This document shows positions 1 through 49,722 of a stretch of 64,000 nucleotides of DNA, piece after piece. The DNA lies in NCBI GenBank assembly GCA_905199545.1, contig CAJKGW010000001.1, positions 144,606 through 208,605 of the forward strand, written 5' to 3'. The translations under genes were made by a program, and so were the position numbers. The notes under the pieces were generated by a model. That model was given only the letters and a program-made list of their open reading frames with translations. It was not told the origin of the DNA and did not search any database. Source of the stretch: an uncultured Collinsella sp. Its GTDB lineage: Bacteria; Actinomycetota; Coriobacteriia; Coriobacteriales; Coriobacteriaceae. Every line of letters starts with the position of its first letter. The first letter of the stretch is position 1.

Positions 1-744
1 CATGCCCTCGCGGCCGGAGCCGGGCTGGCCGGACTTGGCCTCGGCAACGGAGTCGCGCAGGTTCTCGCTGATCAGCTTAATAGCCTCAAAGTGGAACATG
101 TCGGAAAGCTCCCAAGCGCCCTTGGTGGTGTAGCCCTCGATGGCGTGGGTCAGAGCGTCCATGCCGGTGGAAGCGGTCAGGCCGGCGGGCATGGAAGCCA
201 TCATGTCGGGGTCGACGACGGCGACCTCGGGGGCGTCGTTGGTGTCGACGCACACGAACTTGCGGACCTTCTCGGGGTCGGTGATGACGTAGTTGATGGT
301 CACCTCAGCAGCGGTACCGGCGGTCGTCGGCACGGCGATGGTGAACACGGCATGGTTCTTGGTGGGAGCAACGCCCTCGAGGCTGCGGACATCGGCGAAC
401 TCGGGGTTGTTGATGATGATGCCGATAGCCTTGGCGGTGTCCATGGAGGAGCCGCCACCGATGGTCACGATAGCGTCAGCCTCGGCGGCCTTGAAGGCCT
501 CGACGCCGTCCTTGACGTTCTGGATCGTGGGGTTGGGCTTAATCTCGGAGTACAGGCTCCAAGCGATGCCGGCGGCGTCGAGCTCGTCGGTCACCTTAGC
601 GGTAACGCCGAACTTGACCAGGTCGGGGTCGGAGCAGACGAAAATCTTCTTGTAGCCGCGACGCTGGAGCTCGCCGGGGATCTCCTTGATGGCGCCGGAA
701 CCATGATAAGAGATGGTATTGAGAACGAAACGATTAGCCATTGA
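1..744 (-). CDS. fucO: Iron-containing alcohol dehydrogenase, FucO-like lactaldehyde/1,2-propanediol oxidoreductase; 3' end runs off the window
   Basis: Reverse-strand translation begins MANRFVLNTISYHGSGAIKEIPGEL...GGGSSMDTAKAIGIIINNPEFADVRSLEG...PTTAGTAAEVTINYVITD. This is near-identical in motif order to E. coli FucO (GGGSxxD, PTTAGTA). The ATG is at complement 742-744. The ORF is missing from the track because no stop codon lies inside the window. Confidence 0.85.
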
Positions 745-13847: not shown

Positions 13848-14120
13848 ATGTTGTTGTTCCTTATCTGCACGCGCAAGGGGCACGGCATGCGGCCGCGCGG
13901 GGCGTGCTTGGTAGTGCGCTAATACATACAAAAACAGGTGCGCACAGAGAGGACGTTGCTCAGCACGCTGGCGATCGCTTTGGCAGCCCTATCACGCGCC
14001 GTCCAGACGCAGCAGCTCTAAGCGATGGAGCAGATTCGCCGCCGGTTAGTATACCCGCACTCCGTATGCACCCACGTAAACCACAGATGACGAGGCGGAC
14101 GGGGCGGACCTGGGCCAATT

Positions 14121-14257
14121 GTCTCAATCTGTAACAGATACTCAGCAAAAACCGGTCCAGCTGTTATAGATCGAGACAAACTCAAACCTCGCAAAACAAA
14201 ATCTCGATCTATAACAACTAGAGGTCATTTTCCCTGCTAGATGTTACAGATTGAGAT
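14121..14257. repeat. Family A hairpin array, locus 1 (2 units plus a degenerate arm)
   Basis: Arms gtctcaatctgtaacag / ctgttatagatcgagac and tctcgatctataacaa / tgttacagattgagat. The loop of unit 1 is in reverse orientation (aaaaccgg). Confidence 0.8.
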
Positions 14258-14333
14258 GTTTGGCAGGGACTGCCAACGATTGAGCAGCCGCCCTCATCTG
14301 TAATGAAAAGTCATACATTCCAACTATTACTAG

Positions 14334-19557: not shown

Positions 19558-19706
19558 ATCGAGCTCCTCCCTCACGAGCAACTTGAACATTTGTCCATTA
19601 TCACCCAGTGCGGCAGGGTTGCTGCGGACATATCGGTTAACGGAGAAAGGATGAGACACGGAGAACGGAATGCATTGCAGTCCCATCCCAGCGACATCCG
19701 GGAAAT

Positions 19707-19923
19707 GTCTAGATCTGTAACAGGTAGACCGGGTTTTAGCAGCCAGATGTTACAGATCGAGATCTTTCGGCACCGCGTCCAACCTTTGTCTCAATCTGTA
19801 ACAAGTAGACAGGTTTTCGGCCTCTAGATGTTACAGATCGAGATATTTTAGCGGCAGCCAACCTTCTGTCTCGATCTGTAACAGTTGCGAGGCCAAACGG
19901 CCCCTTGTTGTTACAGATCGAGA
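19707..19923. repeat. Family A hairpin array, locus 2 (3 units, period ~80 bp)
   Basis: gtctagatctgtaacag...tgttacagatcgagat; gtctcaatctgtaaca...tgttacagatcgagat; gtctcgatctgtaacag...ttgttacagatcgagac. Confidence 0.85.
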
Positions 19924-19965
19924 CAAACTCGGCAGGAACAACCACATCCGCGTCAGTTACACCCC

Positions 19966-28680: not shown

Positions 28681-28842
28681 CACGTTTTAGTGCAGGGACA
28701 GCCGGCACATATGCATCTGGCCCCTTTGAATCATTCTGGAAACAAGGGCCATGCGGACTTTTGCATGATGGGGCTCGACACAGCAGGCCTCAAGGGCGGC
28801 AACAAGACGCCCAAGTTCGGCCTGTAAGCTCACCGCTTCAAA

Positions 28843-29060
28843 CATCTCAATCTGTAACAGGAAGACCCAATTTTGGCGCCTAGATGTTACAGATTGAGAT
28901 TTTCTGCGGAGCGGTTTTGGTTTGTCTCGATCTGTAACACGAAGGGCCGGTTTTGGCGGCCAGCTGTTACAAATCGAGATTTTCCATAGGACCATTTCTT
29001 CCTGTCTCGATCTGTAACACCTAGGCCCAATTTCCATCCCTAGTTGTTACAGATCGAGAC
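28843..29060. repeat. Family A hairpin array, locus 4 (3 units)
   Basis: catctcaatctgtaacag...atgttacagattgagat; gtctcgatctgtaacac...ctgttacaaatcgagat; gtctcgatctgtaacac...ttgttacagatcgagac. Confidence 0.85.
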
Positions 29061-29196
29061 ATTTCGGCAGCCCCCTTCACCATCCCATTCAAATAGAACA
29101 ATTTTGTTAGTCTTGGTTAACTTTTAAGCTTAAACGGGTATCCTTTGCGGCGTCAAGCAAACGGCACGCACACCGTGCCAGATCAAGGAGGCCCCT

Positions 29197-31302: not shown

Positions 31303-31328
31303 TGGGGCGGGGCACCTACCCAGGCAAA

Positions 31329-31547
31329 CGTCTCAATCTGTAACATCTAGACACGCTTTTAATATCTAGATGTTACAGATCGAGATTATTCCGAGGGACA
31401 GCTCCGTTTGTCTCAATCTGTAACAAGTGGACCCAATTTTCACCGTTAGATGTTACAGATTGAGACCTTCTGCCGGACGGTTTTGGTTTGTCTCGATCTG
31501 TAACAGGAAGACCCGTTTTGAGCCGTTAGACGTTACAGATTAAGACA
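31329..31547. repeat. Family A hairpin array, locus 5 (3 units)
   Basis: gtctcaatctgtaacat...atgttacagatcgagat; gtctcaatctgtaacaag...gatgttacagattgagac; gtctcgatctgtaacag...cgttacagattaagac. Confidence 0.85.
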
Positions 31548-31691
31548 AAAGGTCGGCCGGACTCACAACAGACAGGATCGGCCAACAGCAACCGTGATCC
31601 CTTGGGGGCGGAGAAAAAGGGTCCCGGCCGGGATATCCGACCGGGACCCTTGGACAGAGCTATATGTTGCCGTGAGCCGCGTGCCGACGAG

Positions 31692-31924: not shown

Positions 31925-32428
31925 CTAGCCTTGATACGAGGACGCCTTCGGAGGCGTCTTGCCCTTCAGGACCTTATGGTAGTAATCGTAGGTGAGCGGC
32001 GTCTCGTCACTCAAGCGCTCGGCATCCTCGACCTCGCCGATAAACAGTAGATGCGTGCCAACATCCACAGTGTCGATCAAATGGCAGCTAAACAGGGCCG
32101 CCGCGTGCTCGGGCACATAGGGCATGCCCAGAGCCGTCTCGCGGGTCTCGTATTTGGCAAACTTGTCATAATCGCTGCTGGTGCGGAACCCAAAGTTACC
32201 GATGTAGAGCATATCGGCGGTCTGATCGATCACGGTCAGCGCGAACGCTTTGGCCGAAGCGATGACGCCCGAGGTGACGTTGTCCTTGTTCACGGCAACC
32301 GAAATGCGCGGCGGCATGGACGTCACCTGCACCGCAGTGTTGATGACGCAGCCGGCGCGCAGCCCGTCTGCCGCGGCGCTCACCACGTACAGGCCGCTCG
32401 GCATGGTAAAGAACGCAGTTTTGTCCAT
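31925..32428 (-). CDS. Flavin reductase-like FMN-binding domain protein
   Basis: Split-barrel flavin reductase pattern. Start assumed at MDKTAFF. Confidence 0.7.
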   Translation of the reverse strand: MDKTAFFTMPSGLYVVSAAADGLRAGCVINTAVQVTSMPPRISVAVNKDNVTSGVIASAKAFALTVIDQTADMLYIGNFGFRTSSDYDKFAKYETRETALGMPYVPEHAAALFSCHLIDTVDVGTHLLFIGEVEDAERLSDETPLTYDYYHKVLKGKTPPKASSYQG

Positions 32429-34109: not shown

Positions 34110-34186
34110 TGGTAGCCCGTACCAGATTCGAACTGGTGATCTCCGCCTTGAGAGGGCGGCGTCCTAAACCGCTAGACGAACGGGCC
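34110..34186 (-). tRNA. tRNA-Glu (anticodon CTC)
   Basis: Reverse strand GGCCCGTTCGTCTAGCGGTTTAGGACGCCGCCCTCTCAAGGCGG...GGTTCGAATC-like T-arm...ACGGGCTACCA. A cloverleaf can be drawn. Confidence 0.8.
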
Positions 34187-34203
34187 ATATGTAGCAAATG
34201 CAA

Positions 34204-34277
34204 TGGCTGGGATGGAGGGAGTCGAACCCCCATTGACGGAACCAGAATCCGCTGTCCTGCCATTAGACGACATCCCA
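34204..34277 (-). tRNA. tRNA-Gln (anticodon CTG)
   Basis: Reverse strand TGGGATGTCGTCTAATGGCAGGACAGCGGATTCTGGTTCCG...GGGGGTTCGACTCCCTCCATCCCAGCCA. Confidence 0.8.
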
Positions 34278-40153: not shown

Positions 40154-41360
40154 AGTTGCCGTAACCTCCCCTCTCCTGGTCGCGGATAACGTGGCCGCCC
40201 TCGAGGGCGATCACGCGACGGTGCATGCTATCGACCATCTCGCGGTCGTGCGTGGCGACGATCACGGTGGTGCCGGTGCGGTTAATACGCTCGAGCAGCT
40301 TCATGATGCCCAGCGAGATCGCCGGGTCGAGGTTGCCCGTGGGCTCGTCGCAGATAAGCAGCGGCGGGCGGTTGACCATGGCGCGGGCAACGGCAACGCG
40401 CTGCTGCTCGCCACCGGAAAGCTGATCGGGCAGCGAGTCCATCTGATCGGCCAGGCCGACCAGACGCAGCACCTCGGGAACCTGGCTGCGAATGACACCC
40501 TTGGGCTTGCCGATGCACTGCAGGGCAAACGCCACGTTTTCGTAGGCGGATTTTTGAGGCAGAAGCTTAAAGTCCTGGAACACGGCGCCAATCTGACGGC
40601 GCAGGAACGGAACCTTGCGGTTCTTGATCTTCATGAGGTCCTGACCGGCAACCAAGATGCGGCCGCTCGTCGGCTTGACGTCGCGGTTGAGCGTCGACAG
40701 CAGCGTGGTCTTACCCGAGCCGGAATGACCGACCAGGAAGACGAACTCGCCCGGATAGATCTCGATGTTGATGTCGTCGAGTGCAGGCTTGTTGGGCTGT
40801 GCCGGATAGATCTTGGTGACATGCTCCATAAGGATGACGGGCTCGACACCGGCCTGCTTGGCCATCTTCTTGCGGCTGGCTTGCGGATCGATGGGCGCAA
40901 ACACCGACGTAAAATCGGGGTTGTTGAGCGCGTTATCGAGGCTTGCGACCTCGGCGGCCTGATCGCTCTCGACCACCGGGGCAGCAGGCTGCGTGGGATC
41001 GGGAATAGCGGCAAAGAGACCGGACTGCGCAGGCTGAGGAACCGGCGTCGCAGGGGCCATGGGGTCGGGAATGCCGGCCATGGTAGGCTGCGGCGTGGCG
41101 GCGCCAGCCTGAGGCTGCTCCACGCGAGCGGTCACGGCCTGAACGGGCTCAAAACCCGCCGTGCCGGAAAGCGCGACATCGCTGGTGGGATTGTAGGCAA
41201 AGGGATCGGATGCCGGCTGTGCCTGATCTGCCGGCTGAGCGGGGGCCTGAGCAACAGGCTGGCCCTCTGAATCCGGAGTGGCGAAACGACTGCCCTGGAC
41301 GCCTGTCTGCGTCTTGGGGGCATCATCGCCCGCACCGGAGGTACGGAAGTGGTTACCCAC
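40140..41360 (-). CDS. ftsE: Cell division ATP-binding protein FtsE with a ~170-aa P/Q/A-rich N-terminal extension
   Basis: Walker A GHSGSGKTT, LSGGEQQR signature and Walker B LLICDEPTGNLD. GTG start at complement 41358-41360 with an AAGGAG SD 5 nt upstream. Confidence 0.8.
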   Translation of the reverse strand: MGNHFRTSGAGDDAPKTQTGVQGSRFATPDSEGQPVAQAPAQPADQAQPASDPFAYNPTSDVALSGTAGFEPVQAVTARVEQPQAGAATPQPTMAGIPDPMAPATPVPQPAQSGLFAAIPDPTQPAAPVVESDQAAEVASLDNALNNPDFTSVFAPIDPQASRKKMAKQAGVEPVILMEHVTKIYPAQPNKPALDDINIEIYPGEFVFLVGHSGSGKTTLLSTLNRDVKPTSGRILVAGQDLMKIKNRKVPFLRRQIGAVFQDFKLLPQKSAYENVAFALQCIGKPKGVIRSQVPEVLRLVGLADQMDSLPDQLSGGEQQRVAVARAMVNRPPLLICDEPTGNLDPAISLGIMKLLERINRTGTTVIVATHDREMVDSMHRRVIALEGGHVIRDQERGGYGNYGTN

Positions 41361-41462
41361 TGGTGCTCCTTATCGTCGTGCGTTTAAACTACATGAGCGC
41401 TTTGTATTTTAGCAGCATTAGCTTTGCTGCACATAAGAAGCATGGCGGGGTTTGGTCCCACC

Positions 41463-41585
41463 GGCCGCGCACAGGGTTACCTCCCAAATCGTCCTCGGAC
41501 ATGTCGGCGCCCCCGCTGCGCGCTTCGCGCTGCGGGGGCGCCTCCGTCCTGCGGAAAGATTTGGGAGGTAACCCTGTGCGCGGCC
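41463..41585. repeat. 28-bp perfect inverted repeat (GGCCGCGCACAGGGTTACCTCCCAAATC) flanking a 67-bp GC-rich core with its own palindrome
   Basis: Direct reading. Left arm 41463-41490, right arm 41558-41585. Confidence 0.75.
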
Positions 41586-41808
41586 TGCGGCTACTATGGG
41601 GTCGCCGCGTGATCTTGGGGTGCTGCACATACAAAGTTGGGAGGGCTGAATTGCACGTTGCCGTACTGGGCCCTTTTCCCGAAGAAGGCCTTGCTTGATG
41701 CGGCACTGATTTTGCTGAAATATAAAAACAGGGGCGTCCTCTTTTTGAGGGCGTCCCTGTCTACGTCTATTTGCTATTGGCTTGTGGCCGATTTGAGCGG
41801 TGGTTGCT

Positions 41809-42756
41809 CTATGCCAAGAACTCCTTGGTGGTCGCCACGATGTTGGCGGCGTCCAGGCCGTACTTGTGCAGGAGCTCGGCACCCGGGCCGGACTCGCCGA
41901 AGGTGTCGTTGACACCGATCTTCTTGAGCGGCGTCGGGCACTGCTCGCACAGGACGTCGGCAACGGCGCTGCCCAGGCCACCGATCACAGAGTGCTCCTC
42001 AACGGTCACGACGTGGCCGGTCTTGGTGGCGCTCTTGACGATCAGGTCGGCATCGATGGGCTTGATGGTGTGCATGTTGATGACCTCGGCATCGATGCCC
42101 TCGGCAGCAAGCTGCTCGGCGGCCTCGAGAGCCTCGCCGACCATCAGGCCGCAGGCGATGATGGTCACATCGGCGCCCTCGCGCATGACAATGCCCTTAC
42201 CCAACTCGAACTTGTAGGTCTCGGGGTCGTTGATAACCGGCGAGGCCAGACGGGCAAAGCGCATGTACACGGGGCCGTCGCACTCGTAGGCGGCGCGCGT
42301 CACGGCGCGGGCCTCGACATCGTCGGCCGGAACGATAACGGTCATGCCGGGGATGACGCGCATCAGGGCGATATCCTCGCAGCACTGATGCGTAGCACCG
42401 TCCTCGCCCACCGAGATACCGGCGTGCGTGGCACCGATCTTAACGTTGAGGTGCGGGTAGCCGATGGAGTTACGGACCTGCTCAAAGGCGCGGCCGGCGG
42501 CGAACATGGCAAAAGTGCTCGCGAAGGCAACGCGACCGGTGGTTGCGATACCGGCGGCAACACCCATCAGGTTGCTCTCGGCGATACCCACATCGAAGAA
42601 ACGGTCGGGGCAGGCGGCCTTAAACTTACCGGTCTGCGTGGCGGCGGCCAGGTCGGCGTCGAGGACCACAAAGTCATCGTGCTCGTTGGCGAGCTCGACG
42701 AGGGCCTCGCCGTAGCTTACGCGCGTGGCGATTTTCTTGACGTCTGCCATCCTAGA
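41809..42756 (-). CDS. Transketolase, C-terminal subunit
   Basis: Pyrimidine-binding and C-terminal domains of a split transketolase. Confidence 0.9.
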   Translation of the reverse strand, partial: SRMADVKKIATRVSYGEALVELANEHDDFVVLDADLAAATQTGKFKAACPDRFFDVGIAESNLMGVAAGIATTGRVAFASTFAMFAAGRAFEQVRNSIGYPHLNVKIGATHAGISVGEDGATHQCCEDIALMRVIPGMTVIVPADDVEARAVTRAAYECDGPVYMRFARLASPVINDPETYKFELGKGIVMREGADVTIIACGLMVGEALEAAEQLAAEGIDAEVINMHTIKPIDADLIVKSATKTGHVVTVEEHSVIGGLGSAVADVLCEQCPTPLKKIGVNDTFGESGPGAELLHKYGLDAANIVATTKEFLA

Positions 42757-49535: not shown

Positions 49536-49722
49536 GGTAGGACTCCTTATTGGTCAGGCGCTGGTTACCGATCAGCGCATAAGGCGTCTTGGTTTCCGAC
49601 CAAGACAACAAACTCGGCTATGGTACCACGGCGCCGCATGTCCCACAAAAGGTTCACGGTCTTTTCGGCACGACACGAGCTGGCCCTTGAATATCAACTA
49701 TCATCCGAACACTCCCCCACAT

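Follow-up and report, generated by a model that had tools for sequence, protein, structure and literature searches.

The described systems closest to the element reported here include REPINs, ERIC/IRU and YPAL/RU-2 repeats, and Correia/NEMIS elements together with other MITEs, to which template switching in quasipalindromes can be added as a mutational mechanism. REPINs are non-coding intergenic units of about 100 bp that form one long hairpin in single-stranded DNA or mRNA, persist vertically and have been proposed to act in single-stranded form; their arms are conserved REP sequences, short palindromes tagged with GTAG or CGTC, the spacer varies, and tens to hundreds of copies are found. ERIC/IRU (127-bp) and YPAL/RU-2 repeats are imperfect palindromes over the whole element, of low to moderate copy number in some hosts, located between genes or within operons, which vary by internal deletion or by extra internal segments and are thought to form hairpins in mRNA. 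Correia/NEMIS elements carry terminal inverted repeats of ~26-28 bp around a short non-coding body; internal deletions, presence/absence polymorphism, effects on neighbouring transcription and stems of a size suited to RNase III are typical of them. Template switching, finally, has been documented as both creating and repairing perfect stems (PMC8794818).

The foldback hairpin upstream of ftsE in a 64,000-nt stretch of DNA from an uncultured Collinsella sp., referred to here in its entirety as the window, is a member of an undescribed MITE/REPIN/ERIC-like foldback repeat family. It is probably one copy of a low-copy, non-coding repeat of ~125-150 bp in the C. aerofaciens complex, lying upstream of the conserved putative ftsE promoter and incidental to ftsEX.

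The hairpin is found in the region (41361-41808) between the start of ftsE and the stop codon of the gene for the transketolase C-terminal subunit (tktC), both on the minus strand. The initial annotation had reported, in a non-coding region upstream of ftsE, a 28-bp perfect inverted repeat with its halves 67 bp apart (41463-41585) around a GC-rich palindromic core, and both are recovered by a repeat search: GGCCGCGCACAGGGTTACCTCCCAAATC is followed after 67 nt by its exact reverse complement, and the spacer is itself a near-palindromic core, in which GGCGCCCCCGC...GCGGGGGCGCC (41506-41522 and 41526-41542) pair over 17 nt at 94%. At 94% complementarity the hairpin repeat reaches 33 nt (41458-41590). 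The arm 28-mer has two sites only in the 64-kb window, even with three mismatches (0 of 100 shuffles). As RNA, the ftsE-sense strand folds at -134.4 kcal/mol (z = -14.6; 0 of 200 shuffles) and the opposite strand at -130.6 kcal/mol; with DNA parameters, the fold gives -70.1 (z = -13.7). The bounds of the whole element (Table 1) were set by local alignment with the copy after pfk, described below; nhmmer matches 41452-41596 (E 2.6e-42) and a covariance model matches 41460-41588 with 152 bits. Within this unit of ~148 bp, the outer ~10 nt of the arm vary among strains, mostly with compensation, and the inner stem shows many compensated variants between strains; on the minus strand its tip, GCGAAGC, is a C-GAA-G triloop. 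The unit has no conserved ORF, and the ORFs that cross the hairpin in a program-made list are not conserved, as their reading frame is shifted by the 5-6 nt by which the two core types differ in length. A search for tRNA and tmRNA genes found none, and Rfam, applied at gathering and permissive thresholds to the window and to the paralogous and related loci, returned only sub-threshold generic hairpin matches.

Table 1. Features of the foldback element and its surroundings (window coordinates).
Feature	Position	Strand	Description
Whole foldback element	41452-41599	+	TGGTCCCACCGG - hairpin - CCTGCGGCTACTATGG; stretch homologous among the ftsE, pfk and thrB copies
Left arm, 28 nt	41463-41490		Perfect complement of the right arm
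Right arm, 28 nt	41558-41585		Perfect complement of the left arm
Invariant block 1	41483-41505	+	CCCAAATC + GTCCTCGGACATGTC; inner end of the arm and left half of the asymmetric internal loop
Invariant block 2	41543-41565	+	TCCGTCCTGCGGAAA + GATTTGGG; right half of the asymmetric internal loop and inner end of the arm
Inner GC-rich stem with triloop tip	41506-41542		From repeat search and folds
Putative ftsE promoter	41406-41433	-	Extended -10 TGCTAAAAT (41406-41414), TGTGCA (41428-41433), 16-nt spacer; from sequence and conservation
Putative short ftsE 5' UTR, ~45 nt	41361-41405	-	Contains the SD; near-identical across the genus
Predicted intrinsic terminator of the transketolase operon	41718-41758	-	Stem 41730-41741 / 41747-41758, then minus-strand T-run; read from sequence
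Direct-repeat copy a	41425-41449		TGCTGCACATAAGAAGCATGGCGGG; overlaps the promoter -35 region; partner 41621-41645; 76% identity
Direct-repeat copy b	41621-41645		Partner of 41425-41449

The ftsE gene starts with GTG at 41360, preceded by the SD sequence AAGGAG at 41366-41371. The upstream sequence conserved throughout the genus consists only of the TGCTAAAAT box and the ~45-nt 5' UTR, both located between the hairpin and ftsE, and this promoter-like region is present in every Collinsella species examined, including those that have no hairpin. To judge from sequence and conservation, the ftsE promoter is probably the TGCTAAAAT box, a placement under which the hairpin may still enter the ftsE mRNA by read-through transcription. 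A strict consensus scan gave no sigma-70 match. Some ~100 nt separate the hairpin from the ftsE start downstream of it, and this spacing is constant in more than 100 genomes, even where genes have been inserted between tktC and the hairpin. Terminators equivalent to that of the transketolase operon are found downstream of tktC in other species. A small hairpin at 41444-41462, flagged as terminator-like, is not conserved. The 25-nt direct repeat was considered as a target-site duplication and rejected, since its two halves lie side by side in a hairpin-free species and the repeat thus pre-exists in the empty site.

The element is not confined to this locus. In a 900-kb record of C. aerofaciens (NZ_OY725717.1) three paralogues are found, at ~438.1, 685.5 and 697.7 kb, one of them upstream of ftsE and the others, whose arms have diverged, following pfk and thrB; the count rests on BLAST, whose six places correspond to three loci on two strands. 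A scan of genome contigs with an 18-mer of the arm matched 113 Collinsella contigs, in each case at the ftsE locus. After pfk and thrB, the copies begin at most ~30 nt past the stop codon, between convergent genes, and are nested in outer stems that take in the stop codon, that of pfk being followed by TTCTT. Relative to local transcription, the ftsE copy is oriented opposite to these two; relative to GC skew, all three loci share one orientation, an agreement expected by chance about one time in four. For a mobile family, three copies are few (~370 kb searched with profiles). An autonomous IS sharing the arms was not found in 364 kb by nhmmer, covariance model or BLAST, nor in phage or plasmid collections: nothing beyond chance 16-mers turned up in the phage collection or in viral contigs, and the sole plasmid match by BLAST is a piece of C. 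aerofaciens chromosome mislabelled as a plasmid. The profile searches with nhmmer and the covariance model covered ~364-370 kb of genome. A literature search for Collinsella repeats returned nothing relevant.

In sister species, whose FtsE is 81-69% identical, the tktC-ftsE synteny, the promoter and the 5' UTR are kept and the hairpin is absent: the ftsE site is empty at five such loci, with the same tktC-ftsE-ftsX-rnr order. The initial annotation had placed the repeat in a long ftsEX leader and had stated that a single copy with a structure conserved in relatives would point to a regulatory leader. Neither holds, given the three paralogues and the absence at the orthologous site; the leader itself finds no support either, as the hairpin is separated from ftsE by the TGCTAAAAT promoter-like box and the 5' UTR and is missing from sister species. 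A regulatory RNA is likewise not borne out, since in its other copies the element is placed at the 3' end of unrelated genes and the mismatches carry no RNA strand signature. The suggestion of a MITE or foldback element is supported, the repeat being multicopy and unconserved at the orthologous site in relatives; a textbook MITE it is not, given that no target-site duplication was found, that copies are few and that the arms vary.

The manner in which the copies vary is informative. In an alignment of the ftsE, pfk and thrB copies, 98.5% of the cells are paired and 17 pairs have changed on both sides, a result that none of 500 shuffles reaches. The arms and inner stems of the three copies differ yet remain complementary, and the asymmetric internal loop is invariant. 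Among 37 copies at the pfk locus, none of the 42 loop columns is polymorphic (singletons excluded), as against 14-43% of columns in the coding sequence, arms, tip and flanks. Near-identical strains differ by compensated transversions (A-T to T-A, C-G to A-T and C-G to G-C), and one locus has a 1-nt deletion matched in both arms. In 'type B' alleles a different palindrome stands in place of the inner stem, and both type A and type B cores occur within the same ftsE arms; the tip triloop nevertheless always reads C-GNA-G on one strand, including in the unrelated type B core. A strand-specific RNA signature, that is, an excess of G-U over A-C mismatches, was sought on both strands at ftsE and pfk and not found (24 vs 36 variable cells at ftsE and 59 vs 54 at pfk). 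Together, the covariation, the lack of strand bias, the compensated transversions and the matched deletion point to arm-to-arm correction at the DNA level, combined with purifying constraint on the loop. Covariation of the arms could also come from selection on an RNA or a DNA hairpin.

From the perspective of genome stability, the element behaves as a rearrangement and assembly barrier. At the pfk site, 40 sequences are copies of the family and 20 are copies of an unrelated palindrome; internal deletions and a total lack of the element are also seen there. Hybrid junctions between pfk and ftsE occur in L032 and L147, although these could be chimeras, as they come partly from low-coverage metagenome assemblies. 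A junction of a ~42-kb inversion in L113 falls at the boundary between core and arm, as does the rearrangement breakpoint in L171, and breakpoints and module swaps in general cluster there. About one in six contigs terminates within the hairpin. IS30 and IS21 are found in or beside the element; at two loci, the ftsE-proximal arm (window 41463-41490) directly adjoins, on its outer side, an end of the IS30 family, and their reading as empty or alternative ftsE alleles was rejected in favour of IS30 insertions into the arm.

These features can be accommodated in a tentative mechanism. The palindrome would fold in single-stranded DNA during replication, and intrastrand template switching would copy a change in one arm into the other; this mode of arm maintenance is suggested by the substitution patterns, and selection for the hairpin possibly reinforces the complementarity. 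The strand most likely to matter would be the G-rich minus strand of the window, which carries the C-GNA-G triloop and would be the lagging-strand template. The invariant loop may be the feature recognised by a putative protein that spreads or uses the element. Forty-two invariant positions at fixed loci are unexpected for a purely selfish or neutral element, so a function at the level of the host may exist. At ftsE, the likely effect would be passive, in that transcripts running on from the transketolase operon would be stopped shortly ahead of the ftsE promoter, and the copy would be a fragile, recombinogenic site beside an essential operon.

If the element were a structured motif with a function and a partner of its own, the overlap with the low-copy repeat favoured here would be in anatomy and the difference in why the element persists: the loop would be a binding or cleavage site on single-stranded DNA or RNA, and copies would be kept by the host. 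Candidate partners include a Y1/HUH enzyme, a structure-specific recombinase or a replication factor. This explanation, possible although doubtful, draws on the absence of polymorphism in the loop while the arms, tip, flanks and pfk coding sequence vary, on one loop shared by three paralogues with diverged helices, on the strand-constant triloop, on the single orientation relative to GC skew, on the breakpoints and swaps at the arm/core junction, on the same architecture in other families and on a RAYT-like gene in the genome. However, no partner gene is linked to any copy, the orientation comes from three loci and could be due to chance, Rfam gave no match, and the RAYT-like protein is below the cutoff, has an HVR motif and is not flanked by hairpins. 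An RNA function of the REP/ERIC type is rather improbable. Here the very stable hairpin, once transcribed, would act as a transcription terminator or stabiliser of mRNA ends: it would halt or pause the polymerase, hold back 3' exonucleases or be a cleavage site for RNase III, and the ftsE promoter would be shielded from tktC read-through. RNase III would find substrates in perfect stems of 22-40 bp, the pfk and thrB copies lie near stop codons between convergent genes, with outer stems and the TTCTT of pfk, the ftsE copy is placed between a terminator and a promoter, and a copy of another hairpin family (family 2) lies within the thrC-thrB operon. Against this, the stem of the window copy is followed by no T-run on either side, as an intrinsic terminator would require, tktC already has a canonical terminator, the ftsE copy has the opposite orientation to the other two with respect to transcription, and neither strand prefers G-U over A-C; an RNA role would also leave unexplained an asymmetric loop that is invariant in both transcript orientations.

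Two further explanations bear on the ftsE locus itself. As a cis-regulatory ftsEX leader RNA, the hairpin would be a riboregulator, an attenuator or a 5' UTR controlled by RNase III, which would suit its constant distance to ftsE and the Shine-Dalgarno-like GGGAGG of the right arm. This is very unlikely, as at five sister-species loci the promoter-like box and 5' UTR are present and the hairpin is not, the TGCTAAAAT box lies downstream of the hairpin, the paralogues are at the 3' ends of pfk and thrB, Rfam gives no match at any gathering score, and type B replaces the core wholesale while the locus is kept. The perfect inverted repeats, together with a flipped core in L032, L171 and L191, also recall an inverton, in which a recombinase flips the segment between the 28-bp repeats. 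Such an origin is hardly credible: the core points the same way in each of the 87 intact ftsE copies, and where it is flipped, the sequence is either a hybrid junction or a contig end of low coverage; the spacer is near-palindromic and without a promoter, and at 67 bp it is shorter than the segments on which invertases are known to act.

Several further families of hairpins built to this plan occur in the same genome, adding up to ~12 elements of all families per 364 kb. Some adjacent copies of families 2 and 3 are in opposite orientation, and a family 3 core is found in arms like those of the family described here (family 1). The genome also encodes a Y1_Tnp (RAYT-like) protein (Pfam E 2e-8; NCBIfam REP_Tyr_transpos 37 bits vs a cutoff of 80), whose HUH motif reads HVR; it is the one such gene in the DNA examined, and its flanks hold no hairpin of the family. 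A partner gene linked to any copy of the element was not found. It may be speculated, with considerable reserve, that C. aerofaciens harbours an undescribed class of modular hairpins comprising at least four families, in which a conserved asymmetric core of ~50-70 nt sits in perfect, copy-variable arms and cores and arms are exchanged at their junction; the loop would be the recognition or cleavage site of an enzyme on the single-stranded lagging-strand template, and the arms would be regenerated by template switching.

For annotation, these results speak against labelling the hairpin as an ftsEX leader, a riboswitch or a small ORF. For assembly, the element and its paralogues break contigs in one of the commonest Actinomycetota of the human gut and may create or reflect joins, false or real, of loci separated by 42 kb and 247 kb, with consequences for MAG quality and strain comparison. 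A fragile palindrome that is a target of IS30, IS21 and breakpoints lies ~20 bp from the putative promoter of an essential division operon. Its many natural alleles constitute a clean data set on the persistence of long perfect palindromes by substitutions and indels that are compensated in a single step, and a loop more conserved than neighbouring coding sequence points to a putative hairpin-recognising activity in Coriobacteriia.

Compared with the known systems, the element is, like a MITE, short and non-coding with terminal inverted repeats, and has filled and empty sites in relatives, with ftsE empty at five loci and pfk full, deleted, alternative or empty. Unlike a MITE, it shows three copies per 900-kb record with arms only partly alike, and no direct repeat that would mark a target-site duplication flanks the copies at ftsE, pfk or thrB. 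With Correia/NEMIS it shares the traits listed at the outset; the TA target duplication, conserved terminal repeats, IHF site and hundreds of copies of Correia were not found here. An integron attC site was rejected, as RYYYAAC / GTTRRRY core sites are missing from the ends and housekeeping genes lie on either side. Quasipalindrome template-switch mutagenesis (the Ripley model; Monttinen & Loytynoja 2022, PMC8794818) accounts for substitutions compensated in one step, for compensated indels, for perfect stems and for rewritten hairpin tips, as observed here; it is a mutational mechanism rather than a family, and leaves the invariant loop and the spread to three loci unexplained. ERIC/IRU and YPAL/RU-2 match it in size (~125-170 bp), palindromy over the whole element, copy number, location and modes of variation, but belong to another phylum and have no sequence relation to it; their palindromes are imperfect, whereas the arms here are perfect (28/28), and ERIC has a full-length consensus, whereas only the internal loop is common to the copies. 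With REPINs the element has in common the non-coding intergenic unit of about 100 bp, the single long hairpin, vertical persistence and a proposed action in single-stranded form, and there are also a RAYT-like gene in the genome and, in families 2 and 3, some adjacent copies in opposed orientation. The differences are that copies number 3 per 900 kb, that the arms are not palindromic and have no conserved or GTAG tag, that no cognate RAYT gene in the DNA examined is flanked by repeats, the candidate being sub-threshold, and that here the loop is conserved and the arms vary. If the modular class outlined above is true, it would represent a REPIN-like system with reversed logic, in which the loop is conserved and the arms are free.

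The 28-bp perfect inverted repeat that the initial annotation had described upstream of ftsE (41463-41585, arms 67 bp apart) was confirmed by the sequence and by a repeat search: the left arm, GGCCGCGCACAGGGTTACCTCCCAAATC, faces its exact reverse complement across a 67-nt spacer, and the GC-rich core, claimed to be palindromic, proved to be nearly so, with a GC stem of 11+5 bp. Folding, which had been proposed as a check, gave a very stable hairpin, the 171-nt stretch reaching -134.4 kcal/mol (z = -14.6) on the ftsE-sense strand, -130.6 kcal/mol on the opposite strand and -70.1 kcal/mol with DNA parameters. The 28-mer arm does not recur within the 64-kb window at up to three mismatches, and the surrounding 448-nt gap matched nothing in Rfam and tRNA/tmRNA searches. 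All neighbours lie on the minus strand, in the order transketolase N and C (tktN, tktC), gap, ftsE, ftsX and an RNase R-type gene (rnr), and ftsE starts with a GTG at 41360 behind an AAGGAG Shine-Dalgarno sequence.

An 18-mer from the arm found 114 matching stretches in a collection of species-representative genomes; 113 belong to Collinsella, namely C. aerofaciens and the many 'species' into which GTDB divides it, and every one lies upstream of ftsE. The identical FtsE protein is present on human-gut contigs. The spacing from hairpin to ftsE is fixed and that to tktC variable, with an additional divergent gene or an IS21 in between in some strains, and about one sixth of the contigs end inside the hairpin. 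Two core types occur within the same arms at this locus, type A of 67 nt, which is that of the window, and type B of 72-73 nt, with a different palindrome; core orientation relative to ftsE is identical in 87 of 87 intact copies (55 distinct sequences). Five more distant Collinsella loci, sampled through FtsE homologues of 81, 78, 74, 71 and 69% identity, keep the order tktN-tktC-ftsE-ftsX-rnr with gaps of 202-295 nt; the hairpin was not found in their tktC-ftsE gaps, and a covariance model gave no match in the FtsE-homologue loci of these species. In C. tanakaei, different short repeats of ~30 nt precede ftsE, as CAACTCCAACTGGAGG units in both orientations and tandem GGCGAGACGGGC units, and their number differs between two strains.

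The window and all distant Collinsella species fetched share TGTGCA-16 nt-TGCTAAAAT and, after it, CATGTAGTTTAAACGCACGAC...AAGGAG. Sequence and conservation suggest an extended -10 promoter and a 5' UTR of ~45 nt; a strict consensus promoter scan reported no promoter. On this reading, the hairpin would lie at about -60 to -185 from the start site, and tktC's own terminator is upstream of it in the direction of transcription. The long ftsEX leader in which the hairpin had been placed is not borne out, since the conserved promoter-like box and 5' UTR lie between hairpin and ftsE, and the suggested comparison with relatives shows synteny and box kept and the hairpin missing.

The search for other copies, also suggested, revealed that the hairpin is not single-copy, with paralogues after pfk and thrB in the same record as an ftsE copy (NZ_OY725717.1). 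Because an anomalous contig (L032) joined the phosphofructokinase gene, pfk, to the hairpin, pfk loci were fetched from metagenomes, and a paralogous element (family 1) was found ~30 nt past the stop codon in 40 of 80. Its layout is GGAGGCCCCAGGGCTTACCTCCCAAATC - core - GATTTGGGAGGTAAGCCCTGGGGCCTCC, and it aligns to window 41452-41599 over ~146 nt, its pfk-sense strand matching the window's plus strand. In NZ_OY725717.1 the ftsE and pfk copies are 247 kb apart, and profile searches of 308 kb of this record and the window revealed a third copy directly after thrB, with arms GGAGGCCAGGGGGCTTTGCCCCCAAATC / GATTTGGGGGCAAAGCCCCCTGGCCTCC (28/28 perfect) and a 67-nt core; BLAST with a palindromic query hit six places in the record, which fits three loci read on both strands. 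The copies at pfk and thrB each lie between convergent genes, nested in outer stems that take in the stop codon, that of pfk being followed by TTCTT. PLSDB/RefSeq list the record (900 kb; L216-L221, L135) as 'plasmid 6' of C. aerofaciens TSDC17.2-1.1, but its gene content, with recA, ftsK, rho, pnp, ftsEX and many genes for ribosomal proteins, shows it to be chromosomal DNA mislabelled as plasmid. Facing runs of ~29 G and ~29 C between its ogt-like gene and asd reflect an assembly artefact or else an odd homopolymer hairpin.

In an alignment of 21 sequences from the ftsE, pfk and thrB loci, the consensus holds 49 pairs with 98.5% of cells paired; 17 pairs changed on both sides, and the observed values were reached by none of 500 shuffles. 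The outer helix of 28 bp covaries, as does the inner GC helix, and the asymmetric bulged region between them, CCCAAATC-GTCCTCGGACATGkC / kCCGTCCTGCGGAAA-GATTTGGG, never changes. Among 37 pfk-locus copies, which were sampled via the protein and are therefore unbiased for the arms, the 42 loop columns hold zero non-singleton variants, under a selection pattern that covered 26 of the 42 positions yet left out just one otherwise intact copy; by comparison, variable columns make up 14% of the last 150 nt of pfk, 15-40% of the arms, 43% of inner stem and tip and 20-31% of the flanks. Read on the window's minus strand, the tip triloop is C-GNA-G without exception: most copies have GAA, so that the tip reads GCGAAGC, some have GTA, and the type B core, which is unrelated, has GCA. 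DNA mini-hairpins of unusual stability are closed by the C-GNA-G motif.

An RNA under selection on one strand would be expected to tolerate G-U but not A-C pairs, and no such asymmetry was found among variable pairs at ftsE (24 G-U, 36 A-C cells) or at pfk (59 G-U, 54 A-C). The direction of transcription also differs, as pfk and thrB would give the plus-strand version and tktC and ftsE the minus-strand version. Chromosomal orientation is identical at the three loci, and the GC skew of the plus strand is negative throughout the record pieces and the window, so the GNA-tipped strand is the G-rich one, in most bacteria the template of the lagging strand. Shared by so few loci (three), this orientation is no more than a hint that the GNA tip sits on the lagging-strand template. 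Near-identical strains differ by compensated transversions (T-A to A-T, C-G to A-T, C-G to G-C), and L121 has a 1-nt deletion in both arms. Replication template switching within a quasipalindrome yields one-step double changes of this kind (PMC8794818) and is most likely the reason for the perfect arms, with selection on the hairpin a possible added cause. Recombination inside the element takes place as well, as seen from heteroallelic hairpins that combine the left arm of one allele with the right arm of another (e.g. L023, L028, L048).

Several alleles occupy the pfk site (table), including an unrelated palindrome, GGGCCCTCCGACCCCGCCCGACG..TTTCGATTTGG..CCAATCGAAA.., ~30 nt past the stop codon, with a further palindrome, GTTGCGGTGGAATAGTTCC...GGAACTATTCCACCGCAAC, downstream. 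At ftsE, L006 and L226 carry an IS30-family end with an 18-bp zero-loop palindrome (CCCACATTCATCCGTACA/TGTACGGATGAATGTGGG), inserted into the outer end of the arm nearer ftsE; a candidate alternative palindrome there was rejected, being 97% identical to the end beside the gene for an IS30 transposase at another site of the genome. Strain TSDC17.2-1.1 (L135) has an IS21 (istAB) ~235 nt upstream of the hairpin. The junctions in L032 and L147 run pfk, pfk-type arm and core, ftsE-type arm, ftsE, the expected inversion product of crossing-over between one copy's arm and the other's inverted arm. In L113, from a species-representative genome, tktC, arm and core are joined to DNA from immediately before the window's start, running on into window 1-215, so that either a ~42-kb inversion has taken place or the contig is a chimera; the break falls exactly at the core/arm boundary, as in L171. 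Coverage of some contigs of these types is 1-3x, and they may thus be de Bruijn chimeras formed through the palindromic 28-nt arm.

Coordinates of the features (L numbers denote loci or contigs fetched from other Collinsella strains or species)
Feature	Location	Strand	Remarks
Hairpin arms	window 41463-41490, 41558-41585		
Inner GC stem	window 41506-41522 / 41526-41542		
Promoter-like stretch and 5' UTR	window 41361-41433		between ftsE and hairpin
tktC terminator	window 41718-41758		
FtsE N-terminal extension	window 40905-41360	minus	~150 aa, low-complexity, Pro/Ala/Gln-rich; length varies between species
L31-Coriobacteria ribosomal-protein leader match	window 49543-49578	minus	35.1 bits, gathering score 33
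tRNA-Glu/tRNA-Gln pair	window 34110-34277	minus	
REP/BIME-like repeats	window 14114-14264, 19703-19927, 28841-29061, 31327-31552; L217 9975-10110		
C. tanakaei repeats	L127 2015-2500; L128 1895-2500		
G and C runs	L217 ~32176-32328		
Family 2 pair	L218 2502-2644, 2772-2920		between pnp and rnj; adjacent, opposite orientation
Family 2, single copy	L217 36632-36743		spacer inside thrC-thrB operon; ends 13 nt before thrB start
Families 3 and 4	L216 30942-31045, 31205-31307; L220 21-147; L221 45848-45959; L219 ~5005		L216: between glycosyltransferase gene and dut
Y1_Tnp gene	L221 20955-21767	minus	
IS30-family end in arm	L006 1-100; L226 40-120		
IS30-family end, other site	L220 39062-39130		
Junction	L113 6726-7400		
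pfk site, family 1			40 of 80 loci
pfk site, ~95-nt palindrome	L138, L140, L142, L145 and 16 others		20 of 80 loci; same position
pfk site, internal deletions	L141, L182, L201		
pfk site, element wholly absent	L184		
pfk site, small terminator-like hairpin alone	L210		more distant species

A census, across 364 kb from C. aerofaciens, of perfect hairpins with arms of 18 nt or more and loops of up to 110 nt revealed further families of the same plan, a conserved asymmetric core within long perfect arms that differ between copies; none matches Rfam. In family 2, a conserved, asymmetric core of ~67-69 nt, TCGCGAGTTCCGCACG...GCAGGACTG..GAGCAG, is common to three copies whose arms (38, 40 and 22 bp) show no similarity to one another. 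Family 3 consists of two adjacent copies in opposite orientation; family 1-like arms (GGGCTTACCT) together with a GCGAAGC tip in one of them suggest that arms and cores can be swapped as modules. Family 4 has 2-3 copies. A separate multi-copy palindromic family, REP/BIME-like, has arms TGTCTCGATCTGTAACA / TGTTACAGATCGAGACA and several clustered hairpins per site. One Y1_Tnp protein encoded in NZ_OY725717.1 (Pfam E 2e-8) has 270 aa, with an IS200-like domain fused to a C-terminal HTH-like tail; its RAYT similarity is weak (37 bits against the NCBI REP-associated tyrosine transposase model, cutoff 80), its HUH motif reads HVR, and none of the hairpin families was found in the flanks of its gene. 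Possibly this is a hairpin-binding protein that has been domesticated or is inactive.

We propose that a single insertion, in the ancestor of the C. aerofaciens complex, placed a foldback DNA element just upstream of the ftsE promoter, and that intrastrand template switching would keep it a perfect palindrome. The asymmetric loop would be constrained because a putative recogniser binds it, and local effects would be passive, the element acting as read-through barrier, fragile site and IS target. A literature search found nothing on Collinsella repeats. The evidence places the hairpin among the bacterial intergenic palindromic repeats (MITE, REPIN, ERIC, Correia), apart from each of these families by its low copy number and by the absence of target duplication, conserved terminal repeats, REP tag or linked RAYT. 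The initial reading as a MITE or foldback element holds for a low-copy foldback and not for a textbook MITE, whose hallmarks of target duplication, conserved terminal repeats and high copy number are missing. Compared with REPINs, the logic is reversed: in the Collinsella element, it is the loop that is conserved, whereas the arms are free to vary.
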